This document shows, in pieces, positions 1,772 through 63,515 of a stretch of 64,000 bases of DNA. Location of the stretch: assembly GCF_050920415.1 (NCBI RefSeq), contig NZ_CP169309.1; one strand, 5' to 3'. The notes below the pieces were generated by a model. It did not search any database. It saw nothing but the letters and a program-made list of their open reading frames with translations, and was not told the DNA's origin. Made by a program: the position numbers and the translations under genes. Every line of letters starts with the position of its first letter. The stretch's first letter is position 1. This stretch comes from Escherichia coli. Lineage in GTDB: Bacteria > Pseudomonadota > Gammaproteobacteria > Enterobacterales > Enterobacteriaceae.

Positions 1772-3925
1772 ATGCTAAGTCCTTTGCTCAAACGCTATAC
1801 CTGGAACAGCGCCTGGCTGTATTACGCGCGTATTTTTATTGCGCTTTGTGGAACCACAGCGTTTCCGTGGTGGCTGGGTGATGTAAAACTGACGATTCCG
1901 CTGACGCTGGGGATGGTGGCAGCGGCGCTGACAGATCTCGATGACCGGCTGGCGGGACGTTTGCGTAACCTCATCATTACGCTGTTCTGCTTTTTTATCG
2001 CCTCGGCCTCAGTAGAATTGCTGTTTCCCTGGCCCTGGCTATTTGCAATTGGTTTAACGCTCTCTACCAGCGGCTTCATTTTGCTCGGCGGTCTGGGTCA
2101 ACGCTATGCAACAATTGCCTTCGGTGCGTTACTGATCGCCATTTACACTATGTTGGGGACGTCACTGTATGAGCACTGGTATCAGCAGCCGATGTATCTG
2201 CTGGCCGGTGCCGTCTGGTACAACGTCCTGACACTTATTGGTCATCTACTGTTCCCGGTCCGCCCGCTGCAGGACAACCTGGCGCGTTGCTATGAACAAC
2301 TGGCGCGTTACCTTGAGCTCAAGTCACGCATGTTTGATCCTGATATTGAAGATGAAAGCCAGGCACCGCTGTACGATTTGGCTCTCGCCAACGGTCAGCT
2401 GATGGCGACATTGAATCAGACGAAACTCTCGCTGCTGACCCGCTTACGTGGCGATCGTGGTCAACGGGGAACGCGTCGCACGCTGCATTATTACTTTGTC
2501 GCGCAGGATATTCACGAGCGTGCCAGCTCTTCTCATATTCAGTATCAAACATTGCGTGAACATTTTCGCCACAGCGACGTGCTGTTCCGTTTTCAGCGAC
2601 TGATGTCGATGCAGGGCCAGGCGTGCCAGCAACTGTCACGCTGTATTTTGCTGCGTCAGCCTTATCAACATGATCCGCATTTTGAGCGCGCTTTTACGCA
2701 TATTGATGCTGCGCTAGAGCGGATGCGCGATAACGGCGCGCCTGCCGATTTACTCAAAACACTGGGATTTTTGCTGAACAATTTACGCGCTATTGATGCC
2801 CAACTGGCAACAATTGAATCAGAACAGGCCCAGGCACTGCCCCATAATAATGACGAAAATGAGCTCGCTGATGACAGCCCGCACGGATTGAGTGATATCT
2901 GGCTGCGTCTTAGCCGTCACTTCACACCGGAATCCGCCCTCTTCCGTCATGCGGTAAGAATGTCGCTGGTGTTGTGCTTCGGCTACGCCATCATTCAGAT
3001 AACCGGAATGCATCACGGGTATTGGATCTTGCTGACAAGTTTGTTTGTCTGCCAGCCAAACTATAACGCCACGCGCCACCGCCTGAAGTTAAGGATTATT
3101 GGTACGCTGGTAGGTATCGCCATTGGCATTCCTGTGCTGTGGTTTGTGCCGTCACTGGAAGGGCAGCTGGTGCTGCTGGTTATTACCGGCGTGCTCTTTT
3201 TTGCCTTCCGTAACGTGCAATATGCCCATGCAACGATGTTCATCACACTTTTGGTGCTACTTTGTTTTAACTTGCTGGGTGAAGGTTTCGAAGTGGCGTT
3301 ACCTCGCGTAATCGATACGCTGATTGGTTGTGCCATTGCGTGGGCGGCGGTGAGCTACATCTGGCCTGACTGGAAGTTTCGCAATCTGCCGCGCATGCTC
3401 GAACGTGCCACCGAGGCCAACTGTCGCTATCTCGATGCCATACTGGAGCAATACCATCAGGGGCGTGATAACCGTCTGGCGTATCGTATTGCCCGCCGCG
3501 ATGCACACAACCGTGATGCTGAACTGGCGTCGGTGGTATCAAATATGTCCAGCGAGCCGAACGTTACCCCGCAAATTCGCGAGGCCGCGTTTCGGTTGCT
3601 GTGCCTTAACCATACGTTTACCAGCTATATCTCAGCCCTCGGTGCTCACCGGGAGCAGTTAACTAATCCTGAAATTCTGGCGTTTCTTGATGACGCAGTT
3701 TGCTATGTTGATGACGCGCTACATCATCAACCTGCTGATGAAGAACGCGTCAATCAGGCATTAGCTGACCTGAAACAGCGGATGCAGCAACTTGAACCAC
3801 GGGCAGACAGCAAAGAACCTCTGGTCGTACAACAAGTCGGGTTATTGATTGCATTACTGCCAGAGATTGGTCGTCTGCAACGCCAGATTACTCAAGTTCC
3901 GCAGGAAACTCCTGTTTCGGCGTAA
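1772..3925 (+). CDS. yccS: putative transporter YccS (FUSC-like inner membrane protein)
   Basis: 720-aa ORF from 1763; second ATG at 1772 gives the 717-aa form I recall (MLSPLLKRYTW...); 18 bp downstream of yccF. Confidence 0.85.
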   Translation: MLSPLLKRYTWNSAWLYYARIFIALCGTTAFPWWLGDVKLTIPLTLGMVAAALTDLDDRLAGRLRNLIITLFCFFIASASVELLFPWPWLFAIGLTLSTSGFILLGGLGQRYATIAFGALLIAIYTMLGTSLYEHWYQQPMYLLAGAVWYNVLTLIGHLLFPVRPLQDNLARCYEQLARYLELKSRMFDPDIEDESQAPLYDLALANGQLMATLNQTKLSLLTRLRGDRGQRGTRRTLHYYFVAQDIHERASSSHIQYQTLREHFRHSDVLFRFQRLMSMQGQACQQLSRCILLRQPYQHDPHFERAFTHIDAALERMRDNGAPADLLKTLGFLLNNLRAIDAQLATIESEQAQALPHNNDENELADDSPHGLSDIWLRLSRHFTPESALFRHAVRMSLVLCFGYAIIQITGMHHGYWILLTSLFVCQPNYNATRHRLKLRIIGTLVGIAIGIPVLWFVPSLEGQLVLLVITGVLFFAFRNVQYAHATMFITLLVLLCFNLLGEGFEVALPRVIDTLIGCAIAWAAVSYIWPDWKFRNLPRMLERATEANCRYLDAILEQYHQGRDNRLAYRIARRDAHNRDAELASVVSNMSSEPNVTPQIREAAFRLLCLNHTFTSYISALGAHREQLTNPEILAFLDDAVCYVDDALHHQPADEERVNQALADLKQRMQQLEPRADSKEPLVVQQVGLLIALLPEIGRLQRQITQVPQETPVSA

Positions 3926-4517
3926 GAGAGTCAGCCCATTCTGCAAGCTCCTGGCGGCGTGCCACCGGGAGCGCAGCTTCATGAATGCCGATAATGGCCC
4001 CTTCAAGCATAAACAGAATCTTTTCTGTCACCAGACTGTTTTGCTGCCGCAGTCGCAACCAACACATTTTTGCCCCAAGTATACGTAACGCCCGTACATC
4101 CTTAATCCCCACCTCCCCGAGTATCGCTTCCAGATGAAAAGACATATTGGGCAAATCTTTCAGTCTTTCCCGGGTATTGCGCGTGCTTTTCTCTTTCAGC
4201 GCTGCATCGAGAGAATATTTCGACAGACGCACCAGCTTCAGTTGATTTCGCCATAGACTTTCATCAACCCGATAGTAATTGAGGGTAACGGATCGGCCAC
4301 ACTTTTTATATGTCAGCCAGACAGGCGGATGTTTTACACAGTACTGTGCACTTTGCTCACAAGCCCGAAGATACAACTCACCATCAGAAACCATCGCAAA
4401 CACCGTGTCGTCAACGGTCAGGCTGTAACTACCAAACAATGATCGGTATTCAATTGTGCCCAACGTTGCCAGGTATTCTTGTGATTTATAGATCCGCTTA
4501 TAGGAGAGGCTTTTCAT
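3888..4517 (-). CDS. sxy: competence regulator Sxy/TfoX
   Basis: 209-aa ORF (MKSLSYKRIYKSQEYLATLGTIEYRSLFG...) recognised as Sxy; 3' end overlaps 3' end of yccS. Confidence 0.9.
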   Translation of the reverse strand: MKSLSYKRIYKSQEYLATLGTIEYRSLFGSYSLTVDDTVFAMVSDGELYLRACEQSAQYCVKHPPVWLTYKKCGRSVTLNYYRVDESLWRNQLKLVRLSKYSLDAALKEKSTRNTRERLKDLPNMSFHLEAILGEVGIKDVRALRILGAKMCWLRLRQQNSLVTEKILFMLEGAIIGIHEAALPVARRQELAEWADSLTPKQEFPAELE

Positions 4518-4693
4518 AAAATTCCTTTTAAAATCATAACATAAAAGAATGATTCACATTAACGGATCCGTTAACTACGAAAATAGGCAACTTATTCTTA
4601 AGGGGCAAGATTAATTTATGTTTTCCCGTCACTAACGACAAAATTTGCGAGGCTCTTTCCGAAAATAGGGTTGATCTTTGTCGTCACTGGATG

Positions 4694-32248: not shown

Positions 32249-32445
32249 GCCGGATGTGGCGCACAAAACCAGCGGTTTCAACGGATTGTAGGCCTGATAA
32301 GACGCGTCAAGCGTCGCATCAGGCATTTGGGCACGGCTGCCGGATGCGGCGTGAACGCCTTATCCAGCCTACAAAACCAGCATTTTCAACGGACTTGTAG
32401 GCCTGATAAGACGCGTCAAGCGTCGCATCCGGCATTTGGGCTCAA
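32249..32445. repeat. REP/BIME cluster between convergent ssuB and pepN
   Basis: two near-identical ~68-bp units (32265-32332 and 32372-32441) separated by the REP-type sequence gccggatgcggcgtgaacgccttatccagcctac. Confidence 0.85.
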
Positions 32446-51193: not shown

Positions 51194-51975
51194 ACTTTAT
51201 CCTTGCTCTGCGGTTTGCGCGCGGTGACATGAATATAACGCCCCAGGGTAATATACGGTTCCTGACGGCAATAACGCGTTTCTAATTCAAGTAATGCTTC
51301 ATAGCAGTCGCGCTGCTGGTGCTTCTCGCGCAGGTAATCATGAAACACGCGAACGCCGGTCTTACCCATAATTTGCCAACCAGCTTCTTCCAGCCACAGA
51401 TAAACCTGCGCCGGGTCGCGTGGATAATCTGGCGAAAGCGTCCGTTTTTTCTTTTTCGGCATTCCCGCCTGCACGTAATCAAAATTCCCGGCGACCATGT
51501 TATGCATCAGCAAGCCGTGCGCATTGTAGAACATTAACGACAACACACCGCCTGGACGTAACACTGACCACAGGGTCTGCAATACGCTGCGGGGATCGGC
51601 CACCCACTCGAGCACCGCATGGAACAATATCAGATCAACGGGCGTTTCCAAATGCGAAGCAACATCCTGAGCGGCGCAATGTATAAATTGCATGTTGTCG
51701 CTCACACCTTTTGCTTCTGCCGCCTGTTTTGCGCGGTCGATCATCTGCGCTGAAAGATCGCATAAAATGACCTGATGCCCACGCTCGGCCATTTTGATTG
51801 CGGTCTGCCCTTCTCCACCGCCAGCATCCAGCACACGCAGTTTTTGCGAGCCCATTTCCGCCAGCACGCGATCGAGATCCTGCCACAGAATAGCCTGTCG
51901 AAGCTGCCCTTTGGTGGTGCCGTAAATGTTACGGGAAAACTTTTCCGCAATATCATCAAAATTGCGATCCTGCAT
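51190..51975 (-). CDS. cmoM: SAM-dependent tRNA methyltransferase CmoM (SmtA)
   Basis: 261 aa from [13 protein letters not shown]...; LDAGGGEG methyltransferase motif; 4-bp overlap with mukF. Confidence 0.9.
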
Positions 51976-56159: not shown

Positions 56160-57146
56160 CTAGTTGCCAGAAGCCAGCGAGGTTAGTTGCGCAAGCAGTT
56201 TCGCTGGTTCATCGCCTGAAAGCTGTGCGTCAACAGGCAAATACCACCAATTATCATCTGCAAAGGCCCGGCATTTCACCGCATCTTTTTCAGTCATAAC
56301 TAGCGTTTGCCCGTCGCTTACCAACGCGCTGACATCCGTATAATTCAAAGACTGATGATCGGCCAGTGGTACACATTTTTCCGGTTGTACGCCGCACATC
56401 TTCAGCGTGGCAAAAAAGCGCGGCGGATGCCCAATCCCCGCCATCGCCACCACATGTTCAAGTTGAGCAACGTCACAACGCGTACCGGTACGTAAATTCA
56501 CCGCCTGCCCCGGCAGCAGATGCATGGGGATTTCACCGCTGCGGGGGACACCGCCGTTGACGATTACCGCATCAACCGACTTTAAGCGCCCCGCTCGCTC
56601 ACGCATTGGCCCCGCCGGCAACCACCAGCCATTGCCAAAGCGACGCACGCCATCAATAACGACGATTTCAACATCACGCGCCAGACGATAATGCTGTAAA
56701 CCGTCGTCGGTTACGATGATCTGCACATCAGGGTGTTGCGCCAGAATGGCTTTTACCGCATCAGAACGCACGGGAGAAACCGCAACAGGCGCGCCAGTGC
56801 GTTGATAAATCAACACAGGTTCATCACCCGCCTGTGCTGTGGTGGTATCTACCGACAATAACAGCGGATACGATTCAGCCTTACCGCCATATCCCCGGGA
56901 CACGACTCCCACGCGAATACCGCGCTGTTGCAACTGTTCCACCAGCCAGACAACGACCGGAGTTTTTCCGTTGCCGCCAGCGGTGAGATTACCAACCACG
57001 ACAACCGGTACGGGGGCACGCCAGGCGCGCTTCAGTTTTAGTTTATAGCAAAGACGGATCGCGCCACTCACCAGACCATACAACCAGGAGAGTGGCAGCA
57101 ATAGCCGCCACAAAGGGGATTCACCAGACCAGATTTTTTCGATCAT
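56160..57146 (-). CDS. lpxK: tetraacyldisaccharide 4'-kinase
   Basis: 328 aa with P-loop-like [11 protein letters not shown]; 4-bp overlap with msbA. Confidence 0.95.
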
Positions 57147-58891
57147 TGGCCAAACTGCATTTTGTGAAGTTGCGCGTAAACGCCACGGTGCTCAAGCAAA
57201 TCGTTATGCGTACCGCGTTCCACAATGACACCATCCTCGACGACCACGATTTCGTCTGCCTTTTCAATGGTAGACAAGCGGTGGGCAATCACCAGAGAGG
57301 TACGGTTTTTCTGCAACTCATCCAGTGCCGCCTGAATCGCACGTTCAGATTCGGTATCCAGCGCCGAGGTAGCTTCGTCCAGAATCAGAATCGGGCTATC
57401 ACGCAACAAGGCTCGAGCGATGGCAATACGCTGACGCTGACCGCCAGAGAGCAGCACGCCGTTTTCACCAATCACTGTATCGAGACCGTTATCCATCTTA
57501 TTGATGAAGTCCATGGCGTAGGCCATACGCGCCGCTTCTTCAATTTGCTCACGGCTGTACTGTTCTGTCCGTGCGTAAGCAATGTTGTTGGCAACCGTAT
57601 CGTTAAACAGATGGACATTCTGCGACACCAGAGCAACCTGGTTACGTAAAGACGCCAGGGTATACTCGCGCAGATCGTGACCATCCATCAGGATTTCGCC
57701 TTCATCAATATCGTAAAAACGTGTGATTAGGCTGGCGATGGTTGATTTACCTGAACCAGAGCGTCCAACCAGAGCAACCGTCTTCCCTGCCGGAATTTTC
57801 AGGTTGATGTTACGCAATGCGGGTACATCACGTCCCGGATAAGTAAAGGTGACATTGCGGAATTCTACGTCGCCAGTCGCACGCTCGATCACGCGCTTAC
57901 CTTCGTCTTTCTCCTGCTCACTGTCCAGAATGGTAAACAGCGTCTGACAAGCCGCCATACCGCGCTGGAACTGGGCGTTAACGTTGGTCAGCGATTTCAG
58001 CGGACGCATCAGTGCAATCATTGAAGAGAAAACAACGGTAATCGTACCGGCAGTCAGGCTATCCATGACGCTAGGGAAGCTCGCCGCATACAGAACAAAC
58101 GCCAGCGCTAAAGAGGCGATCAACTGAATGATCGGATCAGAGATGGAAGAGGCTGAAACCATTTTCATCCCCTGAAGACGCATTCGGTTACTGACTTTAT
58201 CGAAGCGTTTCGTTTCCACCTCCTGACCACCAAAAATCAATACTTCTTTGTGGCCCTTCAGCATTTGTTCTGCGCTGGTGGTCACCTGCCCCATGGTGTT
58301 CTGCATGTTTTTACTGATGTTGCGAAAACGCTTCGATACAACGCGAATCGCAATCGAAACAATCGGTGCCAGCACAATCAAAATGATCGACAGTTGCCAA
58401 CTGTAATAGAACATCATGATGAACAGGCCGATGATCGACGCACCTTCACGCACAACAGTAATCAGTGCGCCGGAAGAAGAAGAAGCAACCTGTTCGGAAT
58501 CGTAGGTGATACGTGACAACAGCGTACCCGTTGACTGTTTGTCAAAGAATGAAACTGGCATTCCCATCATGTGACCAAACAGGCGGCGACGCATGGTCAT
58601 TACCACCTTTCCTGATACCCAGGAGATACAGTAGCTGGAGACATAGCTGGTGATACCACGTAAAATCATCAGCCCGATCACCACCAGCGGCATCCACACC
58701 AGCACGGAGCGATCTGTTTTACCAAAGCCATCATCAAGAAGTGGCTTAAGGAGCGATAACATGAAGGTATCGCTGGCTGCGTTGAGGATTAACGCTACGC
58801 CCGCCACGATCAGACCCGCTTTAAAAGGCGCAATGGTTGGCCACAGTCGGCGGAACGTCTGCCACGTAGAGAGATCTTTGTCGTTATGCAT
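57143..58891 (-). CDS. msbA: lipid A / lipopolysaccharide flippase MsbA (ABC exporter)
   Basis: 582 aa with N-terminal transmembrane domain, Walker [10 protein letters not shown] and LSGGQRQR signature. Confidence 0.95.
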
Positions 58892-58927
58892 TCAAAAAAC
58901 CAGCATTTGTTGAAATAGCCGCATATT

Positions 58928-61192
58928 CTACCCGTTATCCACTGGCACGCCAAACCACTGATGATACCAACGAGGTAAAATTTGCTCCCTGAGGCTGCTA
59001 ATCCGCCAGCCTTGCGCTGAAAAATCGACCGTTACTTGCCCCTGATGAGGAGTATCAAGCCACGTATAACCCTGTTGTTGATAGCGATGCTTAACTTTGT
59101 TAGAGGGCAGTCGCCATGCGTTATAGCGCGATGCCGATGCGAGTGCCACTTTTCCATTCACTCGCTGAATTAATGGCAACGATGATGAGGTATTACTGCC
59201 ATGGTGAGGTACCTGAAGTAATGTTGCCTGCATTTGCTGCCAGTAACGGCTTAGCATCTTTTGTTCAGCGGGGGCTTCAATATCACCGGTTAGAAGAATG
59301 CTATTCGTCCCGTCATCAATCTTAACCACACAGGAATGGTTATTTCCTTTATCGTTGCTACCTTGTAAAGGCCAGTGCGCGCTGAAACGCAATCCTTGCC
59401 ATTGCCACGCTTCGCCACGCACACAGGGCTGATGATGTTCCCAGCTTAAAGGGCTTCTGACCCATAACGTCGGCCAGGCTCGTAATATCGAGTCCAGCCC
59501 TCCCCGATGATCCAGATGTTCATGACTCAAAATGACGCCTTCTGGTTCAAGATTATGCCAGCGTAGCCAGGGGATAATCAGTTGTTGCCCACTATCCCCC
59601 TCCGGCCAGGCCAGTCCGGTGTCATAGAGAATCGCTTTACCGTTTCGCGCAATGACCATTGCCAGCCCTTGCCCGACATCAAGCATGTACACCTGCCACG
59701 CGTCAGGCCGAGGTTTTTGCCACAGCGGCCAGCACATCAGCAAGCCTCCAGCCACACACATTGCCGGCAACGCTCGCCAGGCGTTTAATCGCCATACCAC
59801 CAGTAAGAACCATGGGGAAAATGTTAGCCATTGCCAACGTTCAGCAATGTTGATCCACCCTTCCGGCAAACTCTTTAACCCCCAGAAAAGTAAAGCCAAA
59901 GACCGGTCGGCAAGAAACCATACTCCTTGTTCTACGATTAACGGCCCGCTTAAATGCATAACCATCGCTGCGAGGATCAACGGAACCGTGATAAATGTCA
60001 CCAGGGGAATTGCAAATAGGTTTGCAATAAACGAGGTCAGACTAATGCCATGAAATATGACGATTTGCACGGGCATAAGCAGGAGGGTGATTCCCAGTTG
60101 CAGATGGATGAGGGAAACAACCGCGCGCAATACCGGCGGCAGCTGCCACTCCGGACAGGGAAACCACTGATACCAAAAAATCAGTGCCGCGACCGCAGCG
60201 GCAGAGAGCCATAAACTTTGCGAGAGAATGGCAACAGGATCCATCAGCAAAATTGCCGCCAGACAACATATCCATACATCCCAGCCACTCCATTGTCGTC
60301 CACTTAACTTAAGCATTCCCCAAATGGCAAGCGCCACCACGGTACGCAATGCAGGAGGTTGCATTCCCGTTAGCCAGGCGTAAAAAGCAGCACAGCAGAT
60401 TCCACCAATTAATGGCATTTGCCAGTGGATCCAGCACCCAGGCAGAAAAACTTGCCCACCGCGAATGAGTCCTGCAGCCAGCAACGCCGCAAAAGCGATG
60501 TGCAATCCTGATATCGCCATTAAATGCGCCGTTCCAGTATCACGCATGATATTTTTGATTTCTTTGGGGACGGATAACCGTTCCCCCATACCTAATCCAA
60601 GAATAACCGCGTTCCACATATAGGGTTGCAGCGTTGTTTGTAGTGACGCCAGATACTGTGCACGCAGGCTACAATTCGGTTCAATGACACTTGCCTGCAG
60701 AAAACGCCCGGTGAGCGGTTGATGCTGGGCAATGGCATAACGCTGGCTATCAAAGCCGCCATCATTAAGTTGGCCATGAACTGCACGAACTTTGAGTTTC
60801 ATTGACCATACTTGTCCGGCACAAACCGCTTGCGGAAGATATTCGCCATACAGTACGAGGCCTGGCGCAGGGAATATACGTCGACCTTGTAGATGAGTAA
60901 TTTGACCGTAATGAGTGGTCATGCCGTCAGTAGCAATGATCTCAACAATTGCATCCTGCGTCGAGCCAGTTAAGGTTTCTCCTGCCCACAAAATTTGCTT
61001 TGCCGCTGATATGCCCCAAAGAAAAAACAGCAACGTCAGCGCGATATAACGGACGGCTTTAACACGAATAAATGCCAGTACGCAGGCGAAGATAGTCAGA
61101 AGCACAAGGGTTACTGTCCCTGGCAATTGGGGCAAAATCAGCAACGGAAAAATTCCGCAAATTATGCATACTCCGACTGTCGTTATTTTCAT
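58928..61192 (-). CDS. ycaI: ComEC/Rec2-like inner membrane protein YcaI
   Basis: 754 aa from MKITTVGVCIICGIF...; polytopic N-terminal region and C-terminal metallo-beta-lactamase motif SHEHLDHRGG. Confidence 0.9.
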   Translation of the reverse strand: MKITTVGVCIICGIFPLLILPQLPGTVTLVLLTIFACVLAFIRVKAVRYIALTLLFFLWGISAAKQILWAGETLTGSTQDAIVEIIATDGMTTHYGQITHLQGRRIFPAPGLVLYGEYLPQAVCAGQVWSMKLKVRAVHGQLNDGGFDSQRYAIAQHQPLTGRFLQASVIEPNCSLRAQYLASLQTTLQPYMWNAVILGLGMGERLSVPKEIKNIMRDTGTAHLMAISGLHIAFAALLAAGLIRGGQVFLPGCWIHWQMPLIGGICCAAFYAWLTGMQPPALRTVVALAIWGMLKLSGRQWSGWDVWICCLAAILLMDPVAILSQSLWLSAAAVAALIFWYQWFPCPEWQLPPVLRAVVSLIHLQLGITLLLMPVQIVIFHGISLTSFIANLFAIPLVTFITVPLILAAMVMHLSGPLIVEQGVWFLADRSLALLFWGLKSLPEGWINIAERWQWLTFSPWFLLVVWRLNAWRALPAMCVAGGLLMCWPLWQKPRPDAWQVYMLDVGQGLAMVIARNGKAILYDTGLAWPEGDSGQQLIIPWLRWHNLEPEGVILSHEHLDHRGGLDSILRAWPTLWVRSPLSWEHHQPCVRGEAWQWQGLRFSAHWPLQGSNDKGNNHSCVVKIDDGTNSILLTGDIEAPAEQKMLSRYWQQMQATLLQVPHHGSNTSSSLPLIQRVNGKVALASASRYNAWRLPSNKVKHRYQQQGYTWLDTPHQGQVTVDFSAQGWRISSLREQILPRWYHQWFGVPVDNG

Positions 61193-61345
61193 GCACCCTC
61201 CCTGTTTATAGAAAGTGTGCAACTTTGTTGAATGGTTGTCTGGTGGAAGTTTTGCGTTCCCCGAGGCACGTTCAGAAGAATTTAACGACAGGGTGAAAAC
61301 TGCTCAAAACTCTGCGAGGCAGCTTCCAGTTCCAGATTAGAGAAA

Positions 61346-61370
61346 TGAAAAAAGCACCCGACAGGTGCTT
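61346..61370 (-). terminator. rho-independent terminator of ihfB
   Basis: stem agcacccgacaggtgct with a U-run on the minus strand (A7 at 61346-61352 on plus). Confidence 0.75.
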
Positions 61371-61397
61371 TTCTCGCGTTCAAGTTTGAGTAAAAAC

Positions 61398-61682
61398 TTA
61401 ACCGTAAATATTGGCGCGATCGCGCAGTTCTTTACCTGGTTTAAAGTGAGGAACGTATTTTCCTTCCAGTTCTACTTTATCGCCAGTCTTCGGATTACGT
61501 CCGGTACGTGGTGCGCGGTAGTGCAAAGAGAAACTGCCGAAACCGCGGATTTCAATACGCTCGCCCTGCGCAAGAGTCGAGGCCATATGCTCCAGCATCT
61601 CTTTTACTGCATCTTCAACCGTCTTGGCGGGAATGTGCGATTGCTGGGTGGCAAGTCTTTCTATCAATTCTGACTTGGTCAT
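61398..61682 (-). CDS. ihfB: integration host factor beta subunit
   Basis: 94 aa [35 protein letters not shown]... Confidence 0.95.
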
Positions 61683-61736
61683 GATTCCTCCGGTTCCTTA
61701 AAGGCAAATTTAGCGGCTGCTGTTGCTGCATTGATT

Positions 61737-61758
61737 AAGGGCGGCCGTAGCCGCCCTT
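61737..61758 (-). terminator. hairpin between rpsA and ihfB (partial terminator or attenuator)
   Basis: GC-rich inverted repeat aagggcggccgtagccgccctt 84 bp after the rpsA stop; weak U-tract. Confidence 0.45.
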
Positions 61759-61841
61759 AGTGCTTGATTACAGGACGAAACCTGCAATCTGTCAAGTAAA
61801 CTCAACAAACTTCGGAATAAAAATCCCGAAGAGTCAGAGAA

Positions 61842-63515
61842 TTACTCGCCTTTAGCTGCTTTGAAAGCTTCAGCCATTGCGTTGTTGGAGAAGTTTGCAT
61901 CTTCCTGTTTGTTAACAGTTGCGATTGCATCTTTCTCGTCAGCTTCGTCTTTCGCACGAACAGACAGGCTGATTGCGCGGTTTTTACGATCAACGCCGGT
62001 GAATTTAGCTTCAACTTCGTCGCCAACGCTCAGAACCAGGGTAGCGTCTTCAACGCGGTCACGGGATGCTTCAGAAGCACGCAGGTAACCTTCTACGCCG
62101 TCAGCCAGTTCTACGGTTGCGCCTTTAGCGTCAACTGCAGTTACTTTACCGGTTACGATAGCGCCTTTCTTGTTCAGAGCAACCCAGTTGTTGAACGGAT
62201 CTTCTGCGAGCTGTTTAACGCCCAGGGAGATACGTTCACGTTCTGCGTCAACCTGCAGAACAACTGCAGCGATTTCGTCGCCTTTTTTGTATTCACGAAC
62301 TGCTTCTTCGCCTGCAACGTTCCAGGAGATGTCAGACAGGTGAACCAGGCCGTCGATGCCGCCGTCCAGGCCGATGAAGATACCGAAGTCAGTGATAGAC
62401 TTGATTTTACCTTCAACACGGTCACCCTTGTTGTGGGTTTCCGCGAACTGCTGCCACGGGTTAGCTTTGCACTGTTTCAGACCCAGGGAGATACGACGAC
62501 GTTCTTCGTCGATATCCAGAACCATAACTTCCACTACATCGCCAACGTTAACAACTTTGGACGGGTGGATGTTTTTGTTGGTCCAATCCATTTCGGAAAC
62601 GTGTACCAGGCCTTCAACGCCTTCTTCGATTTCAACGAAGCAGCCGTAGTCGGTCAGGTTGGTCACGCGACCAGTCAGTTTGGTACCTTCCGGATAACGT
62701 TTAGCGATAGCTACCCACGGATCTTCGCCCAGCTGTTTCAGGCCCAGGGATACACGGGTACGTTCGCGGTCGAACTTCAGCACTTTAACAGTGATTTCGT
62801 CGCCCACGTTGACGATTTCGCTCGGATGCTTAACACGTTTCCAGGCCATATCAGTGATGTGCAGCAGGCCGTCAACGCCGCCCAGATCAACGAATGCACC
62901 GTAGTCAGTGAGGTTCTTAACGATACCTTTAACTTCCATGCCTTCCTGCAGGTTTTCCAGCAGCTGATCGCGCTCTGCGCTGTTTTCGGATTCGATAACG
63001 GCACGACGAGAAACAACAACGTTGTTGCGCTTCTGATCCAGCTTGATTACTTTGAATTCAAGCTCTTTGCCTTCCAGGTGCAGAGTGTCACGCACCGGAC
63101 GAACGTCTACCAGAGAACCTGGCAGGAACGCACGAATACCGTTCAGCTCAACAGTGAAGCCGCCCTTAACTTTGCCGTTGATAACACCGGTAACAGTTTC
63201 AGCATCTTCGTAAGCTTTTTCCAGCGTGATCCAGGCTTCGTGACGTTTAGCTTTCTCACGGGACAGCAGAGTTTCACCGAAGCCGTCTTCTACTGCGTCC
63301 AGAGCAACGTCAACTTCGTCACCTACCTGGATTTCCAGCTCGCCCTGGGCGTTTTTGAACTGCTCAGCCGGGATGGCGGACTCAGATTTCAGACCAGCGT
63401 CAACCAGTACTACGTCTTTGTCGATAGCAACAACAACGCCACGAACGATAGAACCCGGGCGGGTTTCGATTTCTTTTAAGGACTCTTCAAAGAGTTGAGC
63501 AAAAGATTCAGTCAT
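61842..63515 (-). CDS. rpsA: 30S ribosomal protein S1
   Basis: 557 aa [34 protein letters not shown]...; repeated S1 domains. Confidence 0.95.

Follow-up and report, generated by a model that had tools for sequence, protein, structure and literature searches.

We analysed a 64 kb stretch of Escherichia coli DNA (referred to throughout as the window), which carries ycaI, the essential gene msbA and the regulatory gene sxy. Aligned to E. coli strain MFDS1022581, the window shows 8 mismatches in 64 kb. The coordinates of these genes, and of the features identified in and around them, are collected in Table 1. A first-pass annotation had described ycaI as a polytopic ComEC/Rec2-type gene directly upstream of msbA, had drawn attention to the presence of sxy in the same window, and had interpreted both ycaI and sxy as remnants of a natural-competence pathway.

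Table 1. Genes, protein domains and regulatory features of the ycaI and sxy loci (positions within the window)
Feature	Coordinates	Strand	Remarks
sxy (tfoX), CRP-S regulon co-activator	3888..4517	(-)	209 aa; RefSeq annotation; TfoX_N and TfoX_C domains
sxy autoregulatory CRP-S site TGCGAGGCTCTTTCCG	4646..4661	(+)	Recovered with one mismatch; internal positive control
msbA, essential lipid A flippase	57143..58891	(-)	Directly downstream of ycaI; ATG at 58891
ycaI-msbA spacer, 36 bp	58892..58927	(-)	Probable msbA 5' untranslated region
msbA promoter-like element TTGGCG-17-TAGAAT	58925..58953	(-)	Promoter scan, 9/12 matches; -10 hexamer overlaps ycaI stop codon
ycaI CDS	58928..61192	(-)	754 aa; ATG at 61192; RefSeq annotation ycaI / 'ComEC family protein'
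Metallo-beta-lactamase (MBL) domain, aa 505-686	59135..59680	(-)	Pfam PF00753 Lactamase_B, E 3.7e-24
MBL motif II SHEHLDHRGG (canonical HxHxDH), aa 556-565	59498..59527	(-)	Within the MBL domain
Competence (PF03772) transmembrane channel domain, aa 201-467	59792..60592	(-)	Pfam E 1.3e-52
DUF4131 / OB-fold region, aa 22-157	60722..61129	(-)	Pfam PF13567, sub-threshold
Predicted hairpin, ycaI Shine-Dalgarno (GGGAGG) and start-codon A paired with upstream pyrimidine tract	61192..61221	(-)	-12.0 kcal/mol
Two-part box CAGACA-N17-CACACT	61214..61242	(-)	Putative proximal sigma-70 promoter
Candidate CRP-S-dependent core promoter TTGAGC-17-TAAATT	61279..61307	(-)	Inferred; 8/12 consensus matches
CRP-S site TGCGAGGCAGCTTCCA	61313..61328	(+)	Exact match to E. 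coli CRP-S core
ihfB intrinsic terminator	61347..61375	(-)	13-bp stem followed by T run

The translated ycaI product matched the NCBIfam family TIGR00361 (ComEC_Rec2) over residues 65-718 with 1090.9 bits (cutoff 190), and PRK11539 with 1304.6 bits (cutoff 969). The solved ComEC/Rec2 structures 9vc9, 9vcb and 9vcf also matched YcaI, over residues 108-747 and with E values of approximately 1e-77. Judged by its sequence, YcaI is a ComEC/Rec2-family inner-membrane protein and the E. coli orthologue of that family. The match to the Competence domain covered profile positions 2-265 of 270, and the presence of several hydrophobic 19-mers indicated a polytopic protein. The N-terminal OB-fold region scored below the gathering threshold (E 5e-6; 26.7 bits against 31.6) and the structure alignment begins only at residue 108; PF13567 is precomputed on many close YcaI homologues. 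By homology with ComEC/Rec2, whose OB-fold has been ascribed a DNA-binding role (PMC12455585), this region is predicted to form a periplasmic DNA-binding domain. Similarly, a nuclease role has been described for the MBL domain of ComEC (PMC8579336, PMC12455585), and that of YcaI is predicted to act as a nuclease on the non-imported strand. In addition to motif II, the remaining MBL motifs were found as DVGQG (505), NNHS (617), TGD (635) and HHGS (663), giving metal-site residues D505, H557-x-H559-x-D561-H562, N616/N617/H618, D637 and H663/H664 for motifs I-V. The initial assignment of ycaI as a ComEC/Rec2-type gene with an SHEHLDHRGG motif was borne out by the Competence and MBL domains, the TIGR00361 match and the location of the motif within the MBL domain.

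The region upstream of ycaI had been singled out as a place where a CRP-S site might lie, and such a site is present. A search with the palindromic Haemophilus influenzae-type pattern TGCGA-N6-TCGCA, allowing up to two mismatches, returned 47 matches against 44 expected and missed the known sxy site; since this pattern was uninformative, we used the asymmetric E. coli core TGCGA-N6-TTCCA instead (Sinha 2009, in the form quoted in PMC6728893). The sequence TGCGAGGCAGCTTCCA, at -136 to -121 relative to the ycaI ATG, was the sole exact match (10/10 core positions) in the 64 kb window, for which 0.27 were expected, a comparison to be read with the caveat that the consensus may have been derived partly from the ycaI site itself. 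Read along ycaI, its TGCGA half faces the promoter. The site is identical in K-12 and is found at the same position upstream of ycaI across six enterobacterial genera, with the surrounding intergenic DNA diverged. Orthologous sites start at -136 to -138 and match the core at 10/10 positions in Escherichia albertii and in a Salmonella-like genome, 9/10 in Klebsiella, 8/10 in Kosakonia and 9/10 in Citrobacter, where the diagnostic C6 is replaced by G or A (TGGGA or TGAGA). The Enterobacter site is weak, at 7/10 by eye.

The ihfB terminator, which lies between ihfB and the control region of ycaI, is kept in all aligned orthologous loci. Class I placement has been claimed for CRP-S sites (PMC6728893). 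At ycaI, no core promoter was found at any standard class I spacing: the best candidates for a -10 would put the site close to -48.5 or -113.5, and none that would fit a position of -61.5, -72.5, -82.5 or -92.5 could be read from the ycaI upstream sequence. The candidate TTGAGC-17-TAAATT scores below the promoter-scan threshold. Its layout relative to the CRP-S site, TCGCA-N28-TAAATT, is much like the TCGCA-N27-TAAATT of the sxy promoter, but we rejected this likeness as evidence for the position of the ycaI promoter because the sxy transcript is reported to begin at a G located 115 bp before the ATG (PMC3330819; position 4632 of the window), which is separated from the midpoint of the sxy CRP-S site by only approximately 21 bp. 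Nearer to ycaI, the CAGACA and CACACT boxes are kept at a fixed spacing of 17-18 nt around a spacer of variable sequence in six genera, and may constitute a proximal sigma-70 promoter of the gene. The predicted hairpin at the ycaI start was the most stable among 51 translation-initiation regions of the window, and the minimum-energy fold of every enterobacterial sequence tested (17/17, window included) had the ycaI Shine-Dalgarno sequence base-paired. Applied to MAFFT-aligned ycaI leaders, RNAalifold returned 4 pairs only, as the hairpin arms were off by 1 nt between genera. A covariance model made with six Escherichia sequences was too narrow, recovering few orthologues and some spurious sequences, so we claim no covariation statistic. 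Rfam gave no match in 58500-62000.

At the other end of ycaI, the distance from its stop codon to the msbA ATG is exactly 36 bp on the same strand, as the first-pass annotation had stated, and 13 further Escherichia and Citrobacter genomes have a gap of the same length. The spacer is 100 % identical to that of K-12, compared with 94.7 % for ycaI. No terminator was found in the 36 bp gap, and read-through from ycaI into msbA is therefore possible; the msbA and lpxK genes share 4 bp. The promoter-like element TTGGCG-17-TAGAAT was invariant across six enterobacterial genera, and GTAGAATAG was kept beside comEC homologues as distant as 35 % and 32 % identity, for which the gene order comEC-msbA-lpxK was kept too. 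This conservation suggests that msbA and lpxK may be expressed mainly independently of ycaI, from a promoter embedded in the ycaI 3' end. Without the last 60 nt of ycaI, the essential operon downstream would probably lose its msbA promoter, and the elements flanking ycaI could matter to anyone deleting or engineering the gene.

The identification of sxy as the competence regulator in the window was upheld by the TfoX_N/TfoX_C protein that it encodes. The significance implied by its sharing the window with ycaI was not, as the two genes are separated by 54 kb and approximately 45 unrelated genes with no sign of a functional cluster, and their occurrence in the same window appears incidental. 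The competence interpretation itself held only in part: the placing of ycaI in the ComEC/Rec2 family and of sxy as the competence co-activator stands, but the description of the two as remnants is not supported. The ycaI reading frame was intact at 754 aa in 14/14 Escherichia and Citrobacter genomes and in four further genera, its catalytic motifs are all intact, its CRP-S site is conserved, and all but three of 5,426 complete E. coli genomes (5,423) carry the gene. Within Escherichia its dN/dS was 0.08-0.125, comparable to the 0.05-0.09 of the essential neighbour lpxK. ycaI is maintained by purifying selection. The notion that ycaI and sxy are decaying, non-functional relics of an ancestral competence system draws on the faster evolution of ycaI than of its neighbours (94.7 % identity to K-12 versus 98.6-99.6 % for msbA, ihfB and rpsA), and on reports that E. 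coli natural transformation has not been shown without added recombination functions and that no natural inducer of sxy is known (PMC3330819). The same work, however, demonstrated Sxy-dependent natural DNA uptake and stated in general terms that the competence-gene homologues are all induced when sxy is expressed (Sinha & Redfield 2012, PMC3330819). The selection data largely refute the relic interpretation, which we consider very improbable, and instead fit the view that E. coli has retained a DNA-uptake system which can be induced.

Two other readings concern how ycaI is regulated and what it is for. The TGCGA-N6-TTCCA upstream of ycaI could be a chance occurrence, in which case ycaI transcripts would stem solely from ihfB read-through or from the CAGACA-N17-CACACT box, which is conserved and closer to the gene. 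At least one exact core match did arise somewhere in 24 of 100 shuffles of the window, and no good -10 stands at a canonical class I or II spacing from the site; yet only approximately 0.001 exact matches are expected in the 208 bp ihfB-ycaI intergenic region, the position is conserved in six genera whose flanking DNA has diverged, and both an extended TGCGAGGC motif and the distance to the start codon are common to the sxy and ppdD sites. We give a chance origin very little credence. It also seems unlikely that the main enterobacterial role of ycaI is something other than transformation, be it nutritional DNA uptake or an envelope function tied to msbA and lpxK. Such a role would accord with the persistence of the comEC-msbA-lpxK order across gamma-proteobacteria, even beside the distant homologues noted above, and with the ycaI-msbA-lpxK-ycaQ operon listed in databases (PMC4421995). 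The use of DNA as a nutrient by E. coli via its competence homologues (work cited in PMC3330819) and the lower CaCl2 and ultrasound transformation efficiency of a ycaI nonsense mutant (PMC12844161) point in the same direction. Nevertheless, YcaI has the domains and motifs of a protein that imports and cleaves DNA, a CRP-S site of the competence type precedes its gene, and msbA apparently has its own promoter, so that the conserved gene order need not imply a common function; uptake for nutrition would moreover work by the same molecular mechanism and hence differs in physiological purpose only. A further and doubtful possibility is that the ancient comEC-msbA-lpxK linkage is itself a regulatory design, in which the anti-Shine-Dalgarno hairpin would block ComEC translation on read-through or long-leader transcripts and the msbA promoter would insulate the LPS genes, and yet Sxy-induced read-through could couple lipid A export to competence.

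We think it very probable, in preference to these alternatives, that ycaI encodes a ComEC/Rec2 orthologue which imports one DNA strand in competence and stays silent until cAMP-CRP and Sxy act at its CRP-S site, with msbA and lpxK under a promoter of their own. By homology with ComEC/Rec2, the predicted periplasmic OB-fold of YcaI would bind incoming double-stranded DNA, the MBL domain, with its complete HxHxDH metal site, would degrade the non-imported strand, and the polytopic Competence domain would provide the channel for the other. We infer this transport mechanism in E. coli, and likewise the promoters and the separate expression of msbA. The gene would normally be silent and would be switched on within the CRP-S regulon, when cAMP-CRP and Sxy occupy the low-affinity TGCGAGGCAGCTTCCA approximately 130 bp upstream of the ycaI start. 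Sxy, encoded 54 kb away, activates its own promoter via a near-identical site, and msbA and lpxK, probably transcribed from the conserved promoter at the end of ycaI, would not depend on Sxy.

The central facts are already known: ycaI as a ComEC/Rec2 homologue, sxy as a regulator, and the E. coli CRP-S regulon were described between 2006 and 2012, and rec2 is among the orthologues listed as present in Enterobacteriaceae (PMC1635313). For the ycaI anti-Shine-Dalgarno hairpin and the msbA promoter element we found no description in the literature examined, and these two small flanking regulatory features are apparently undescribed. The ycaI-msbA-lpxK-ycaQ unit of the databases agrees with the window in gene order and strand, but differs from it in that the window has a conserved promoter-like element within the last 30 nt of ycaI. 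The CRP-S sites of sxy, ppdD, hofM/yrfD, ybaV, yifB and yhgH have the same asymmetric 16-bp core as that of ycaI, consisting of TGCGA and a weak TTCCA-like half, which at sxy reads TTCCG (PMC6728893). These promoters and that of ycaI have the extended TGCGAGGC motif 135-150 bp before the start codon; for ycaI, ppdD, sxy and ybaV the distances run from -136 to -148, and the ppdD and sxy sites are experimentally supported. Against a role of ycaI in DNA import, spontaneous plasmid transformation on plates was unaffected in ycaI mutants (PMC6135910, PMC3306417), and E. coli takes up DNA very inefficiently (PMC3330819). At the protein level, YcaI resembles ComEC (Bacillus subtilis) and Rec2 (H. influenzae) in its architecture over the full length (PF03772 and PF00753, with PF13567 below threshold), and full-length ComEC/Rec2 structures are now available. 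Motif II sets it apart from characterised proteins, being HEHLDH (HxHxDH) in YcaI, HxDxDH in the Bacillus, Moorella and M. glycerini enzymes, and a degenerate HGANAH in the Rec2 structure 9vc9. The HxHxDH form was found in 115 of 116 close enterobacterial homologues of YcaI, and HxDxDH in 107 of 137 clusters of more distant homologues.

The window extends from helD to cmk on the E. coli chromosome in an orientation reversed relative to K-12, and differs from strain MFDS1022581 (NZ_CP169399.1) at 8 positions in 64 kb. The factual statements of the first-pass annotation were all correct: ycaI is a ComEC/Rec2 homologue carrying the metallo-beta-lactamase (MBL) motif SHEHLDHRGG, its stop codon is separated from msbA on the same strand by exactly 36 bp, and sxy lies within the window. 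Its interpretation was partly supported. The homology and the prediction of a Sxy-dependent CRP site (CRP-S) were right, whilst the description of ycaI and sxy as competence remnants, and the significance given to their linkage, were not. The central finding, that ycaI is a ComEC homologue with a CRP-S control site upstream, is already known.

Positions of the features discussed, in window coordinates
Feature	Position	Strand	Basis or remark
sxy	3888-4517	-	
sxy/yccS 3' overlap	3888-3925		38 bp
Autoregulatory sxy site TGCGAGGCTCTTTCCG	4646-4661		One-mismatch search
CGCGTCAAGCGTCGCA 16-mer, two copies	32303-32318; 32412-32427	+	109 bp apart
CRP-S-like TGCGAGCCCATTTCCG	51845-51860	+	One mismatch
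Conserved ycaI end and gap	58892-58985	-	Last ~55 nt of ycaI plus 36-nt gap
msbA promoter-like element TTGGCG-17-TAGAAT	58925-58953	-	Promoter scan; -10 overlaps ycaI stop codon
ycaI	58928-61192	-	ORF, ATG at 61192, 754 aa; RefSeq 'ComEC family protein'
MBL motif II, SHEHLDHRGG	59498-59527 (aa 556-565)	-	Sequence
Predicted hairpin	61192-61221	-	Pairs Shine-Dalgarno GGGAGG and A of start codon with upstream pyrimidine tract
Two-part box CAGACA-N17-CACACT	61214-61242	-	Spacing of 17-18 nt fixed, spacer variable
ycaI CRP-S site TGCGAGGCAGCTTCCA	61313-61328		Exact core match
ihfB terminator	61347-61375		ycaI CRP-S site just downstream

A full-length ycaI of 754 aa, free of frameshifts and premature stops, was present in 14/14 Escherichia and Citrobacter genomes compared, and close homologues of 751-754 aa were found in Klebsiella, Enterobacter, Kosakonia, Lelliottia and others. 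The gene was detected at a coverage of at least 80 % in 5,423 of 5,426 complete E. coli genomes. Its dN/dS within Escherichia (0.08-0.125) was similar to that of the essential gene lpxK (0.05-0.09), with msbA lower (0.015-0.04). DNA uptake via the competence machinery has also been reported upon sxy expression, once lambda Red supplies recombination (Sinha & Redfield 2012, PMC3330819). The intact reading frame, dN/dS, prevalence and published uptake all speak against a remnant; ycaI is a maintained, inducible function. The implied significance of its co-occurrence with sxy was not supported either, as approximately 45 unrelated genes, among them ompA, pqiABC, the elf fimbrial operon, ssu, pepN, ompF and mukFEB, occupy the 54 kb that separate the two. 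No TfoX gene was found near comEC in the homologue loci fetched, which reach at most 4 kb either side, and the presence of both genes in one window is treated as incidental. Sxy itself comprises 209 aa with TfoX_N and TfoX_C domains, and the 3' end of its gene overlaps that of the convergent yccS (+). Separately, the ssuB-pepN intergenic region carries two copies of CGCGTCAAGCGTCGCA, which resemble REP/BIME-type repeats.

The requested-for CRP-S site was present upstream of ycaI. The E. coli motif, as Sinha et al. (2009) are quoted by Søndberg et al. (2019, PMC6728893), is TGCGA-N6-TTCCA, an asymmetric element that combines a conserved half-site with a weak one and functions irrespective of its orientation (PMC6728893). 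The sole exact core match in the 64-kb window was TGCGAGGCAGCTTCCA, 121-136 bp upstream of the ycaI ATG. Shuffled sequences gave a chance rate of 0.27 exact matches per 64 kb, hence ~0.001 for the 208 bp of intergenic sequence named beforehand by the first-pass annotation, and a core score of 10/10 occurred in 0.4 % of the 250-nt segments of the window, i.e. the ycaI segment alone. As an internal control, a one-mismatch search recovered the autoregulatory sxy site, with half-sites exactly as described for it in PMC6728893. K-12 carries the ycaI site unchanged. In the orthologous loci the 16-mer between ihfB and ycaI begins at -136 to -138 relative to the ATG, with all ten core positions retained in E. 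albertii (TGCGAAGCAGCTTCCA) and a Salmonella-like genome (TGCGAAACGTTTTCCA), 9/10 in Klebsiella oxytoca (TGCGAGGAAAATTCAA) and Citrobacter (TGAGA or TGGGA, then TTCCA), and 8/10 in Kosakonia (TGCGAAGTAGCTTCAG), amid diverged flanks; Enterobacter retains a weak version only. Phylogenetic footprinting had previously identified CRP-S motifs in the promoters of enterobacterial competence genes, with rec2 among the orthologues listed (Cameron & Redfield 2006, PMC1635313), and all competence-gene homologues are stated in general terms to be induced by sxy expression (Sinha & Redfield 2012, PMC3330819).

K-12 promoters of other Sxy-regulon genes, scanned in the same way, scored 10/10 (yifB), 9/10 (yhgH) and 8/10 (ybaV); the experimentally validated ppdD scored below 8/10, yet its TGCGA half-site was perfect. 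In these four promoters the site begins 135-153 bp before the start codon, and an extended TGCGAGGC motif is common to the ycaI, ppdD, sxy and ybaV sites. The sxy and ycaI control regions (4613-4661 and 61279-61328, both -) also display the same layout of weak half-site, N6, TCGCA, 4-5 nt, TTGnnn, 17 nt and TAAATT. The transcription start published for sxy (a G at 4632, 115 bp before the ATG) does not fit this layout being the active promoter. A further sequence resembling the sxy site, TGCGAGCCCATTTCCG, falls within cmoM, towards its 5' end and ~250 bp upstream of the divergently oriented elyC; six one-mismatch matches of this kind are expected by chance.

Nearer the start codon, the predicted ycaI hairpin (-12.0 kcal/mol) was the most stable among 51 translation-initiation regions in the window. 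The Shine-Dalgarno was paired in the minimum-energy fold of 17/17 enterobacterial sequences, the window included, and two-sided changes were seen, e.g. GCACAC/GGUGC in E. coli vs GCAUAC/GUAUGC in Kosakonia. Neither the leader alignment nor a covariance model gave formal covariation support. The folding predictions suggest that the hairpin sequesters the ycaI Shine-Dalgarno and start codon. Its 5' arm overlaps the two-part box, which is kept in Escherichia, Citrobacter, the Salmonella-like genome, Klebsiella, Enterobacter and Kosakonia and could be a proximal sigma-70 promoter; the hairpin and promoter readings therefore compete. Anti-Shine-Dalgarno tracts were also observed in homologues of 40, 35 and 32 % identity.

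At the other end of the gene, the ycaI-msbA junction was almost invariant across six enterobacterial genera from Escherichia to Kosakonia, synonymous positions included; dS of the remaining ycaI was saturated over the same comparison. The promoter-like element here was the sole such match on the minus strand in the region scanned, and GTAGAATAG is kept in the same place beside comEC homologues whose identity is only 35 and 32 %, and which are likewise followed by msbA and lpxK (of four distant homologue loci, two were long enough to show neighbours). The order comEC-msbA-lpxK, in which comEC is followed by a gap of 31-45 bp, is conserved in Enterobacteriaceae and as far out as homologues of 32 % identity (loci L018-L021, L025 and L026), the most distant having lolCDE and a DUF2062 gene upstream. 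On this sequence evidence, msbA likely has an independent promoter at the end of ycaI, and deletion of the ycaI 3' end could therefore affect essential genes. Operon databases treat ycaI-msbA-lpxK-ycaQ as one unit (PMC4421995), with which such a promoter is compatible because no terminator was found between ycaI and msbA. As a separate observation, both the ycaI allele and the intergenic region upstream of it (58928-61400) are unusually divergent within E. coli. An allele at least 99 % identical to it occurs in only 2 of 5,425 genomes, all others falling at 94.7-96.9 %; msbA identity was 97.8-98.6 %. Relative to K-12, ycaI displayed 120 nucleotide and 44 amino-acid differences; the flanking rpsA, ihfB and 36-bp gap were 99.6-100 % identical, with rpsA and ihfB at 99.6 %.

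The ComEC/Rec2 identity of YcaI was upheld by family score, domains and structure alignment. The NCBIfam ComEC_Rec2 equivalog model scored 1091 bits (cutoff 190), and Pfam detected Competence (aa 201-467, E 1e-52) and Lactamase_B (aa 505-686, E 4e-24) domains, with a sub-threshold score for the DUF4131 OB fold (aa 22-157). By homology with ComEC, for which these roles have been assigned (PMC8579336, PMC12455585), the OB fold would bind duplex DNA, the MBL domain would degrade the 5' strand, and the other strand would be conducted by the Competence domain. The remaining MBL metal-binding motifs are also present. Among homologue protein sets P0001-P0269, canonical HxHxDH was found in 115/116 close enterobacterial YcaI homologues and HxDxDH in 107/137 more distant ComEC homologue clusters, HxHxDH being a detail specific to enterobacteria. 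YcaI residues 108-747 align to the recently solved full-length Rec2/ComEC structures 9vc9, 9vcb and 9vcf (E ~1e-77). Characterized ComEC enzymes carry HxDxDH and the solved Rec2 9vc9 a degenerate HGANAH at the motif II position, in contrast to the canonical HxHxDH of YcaI.
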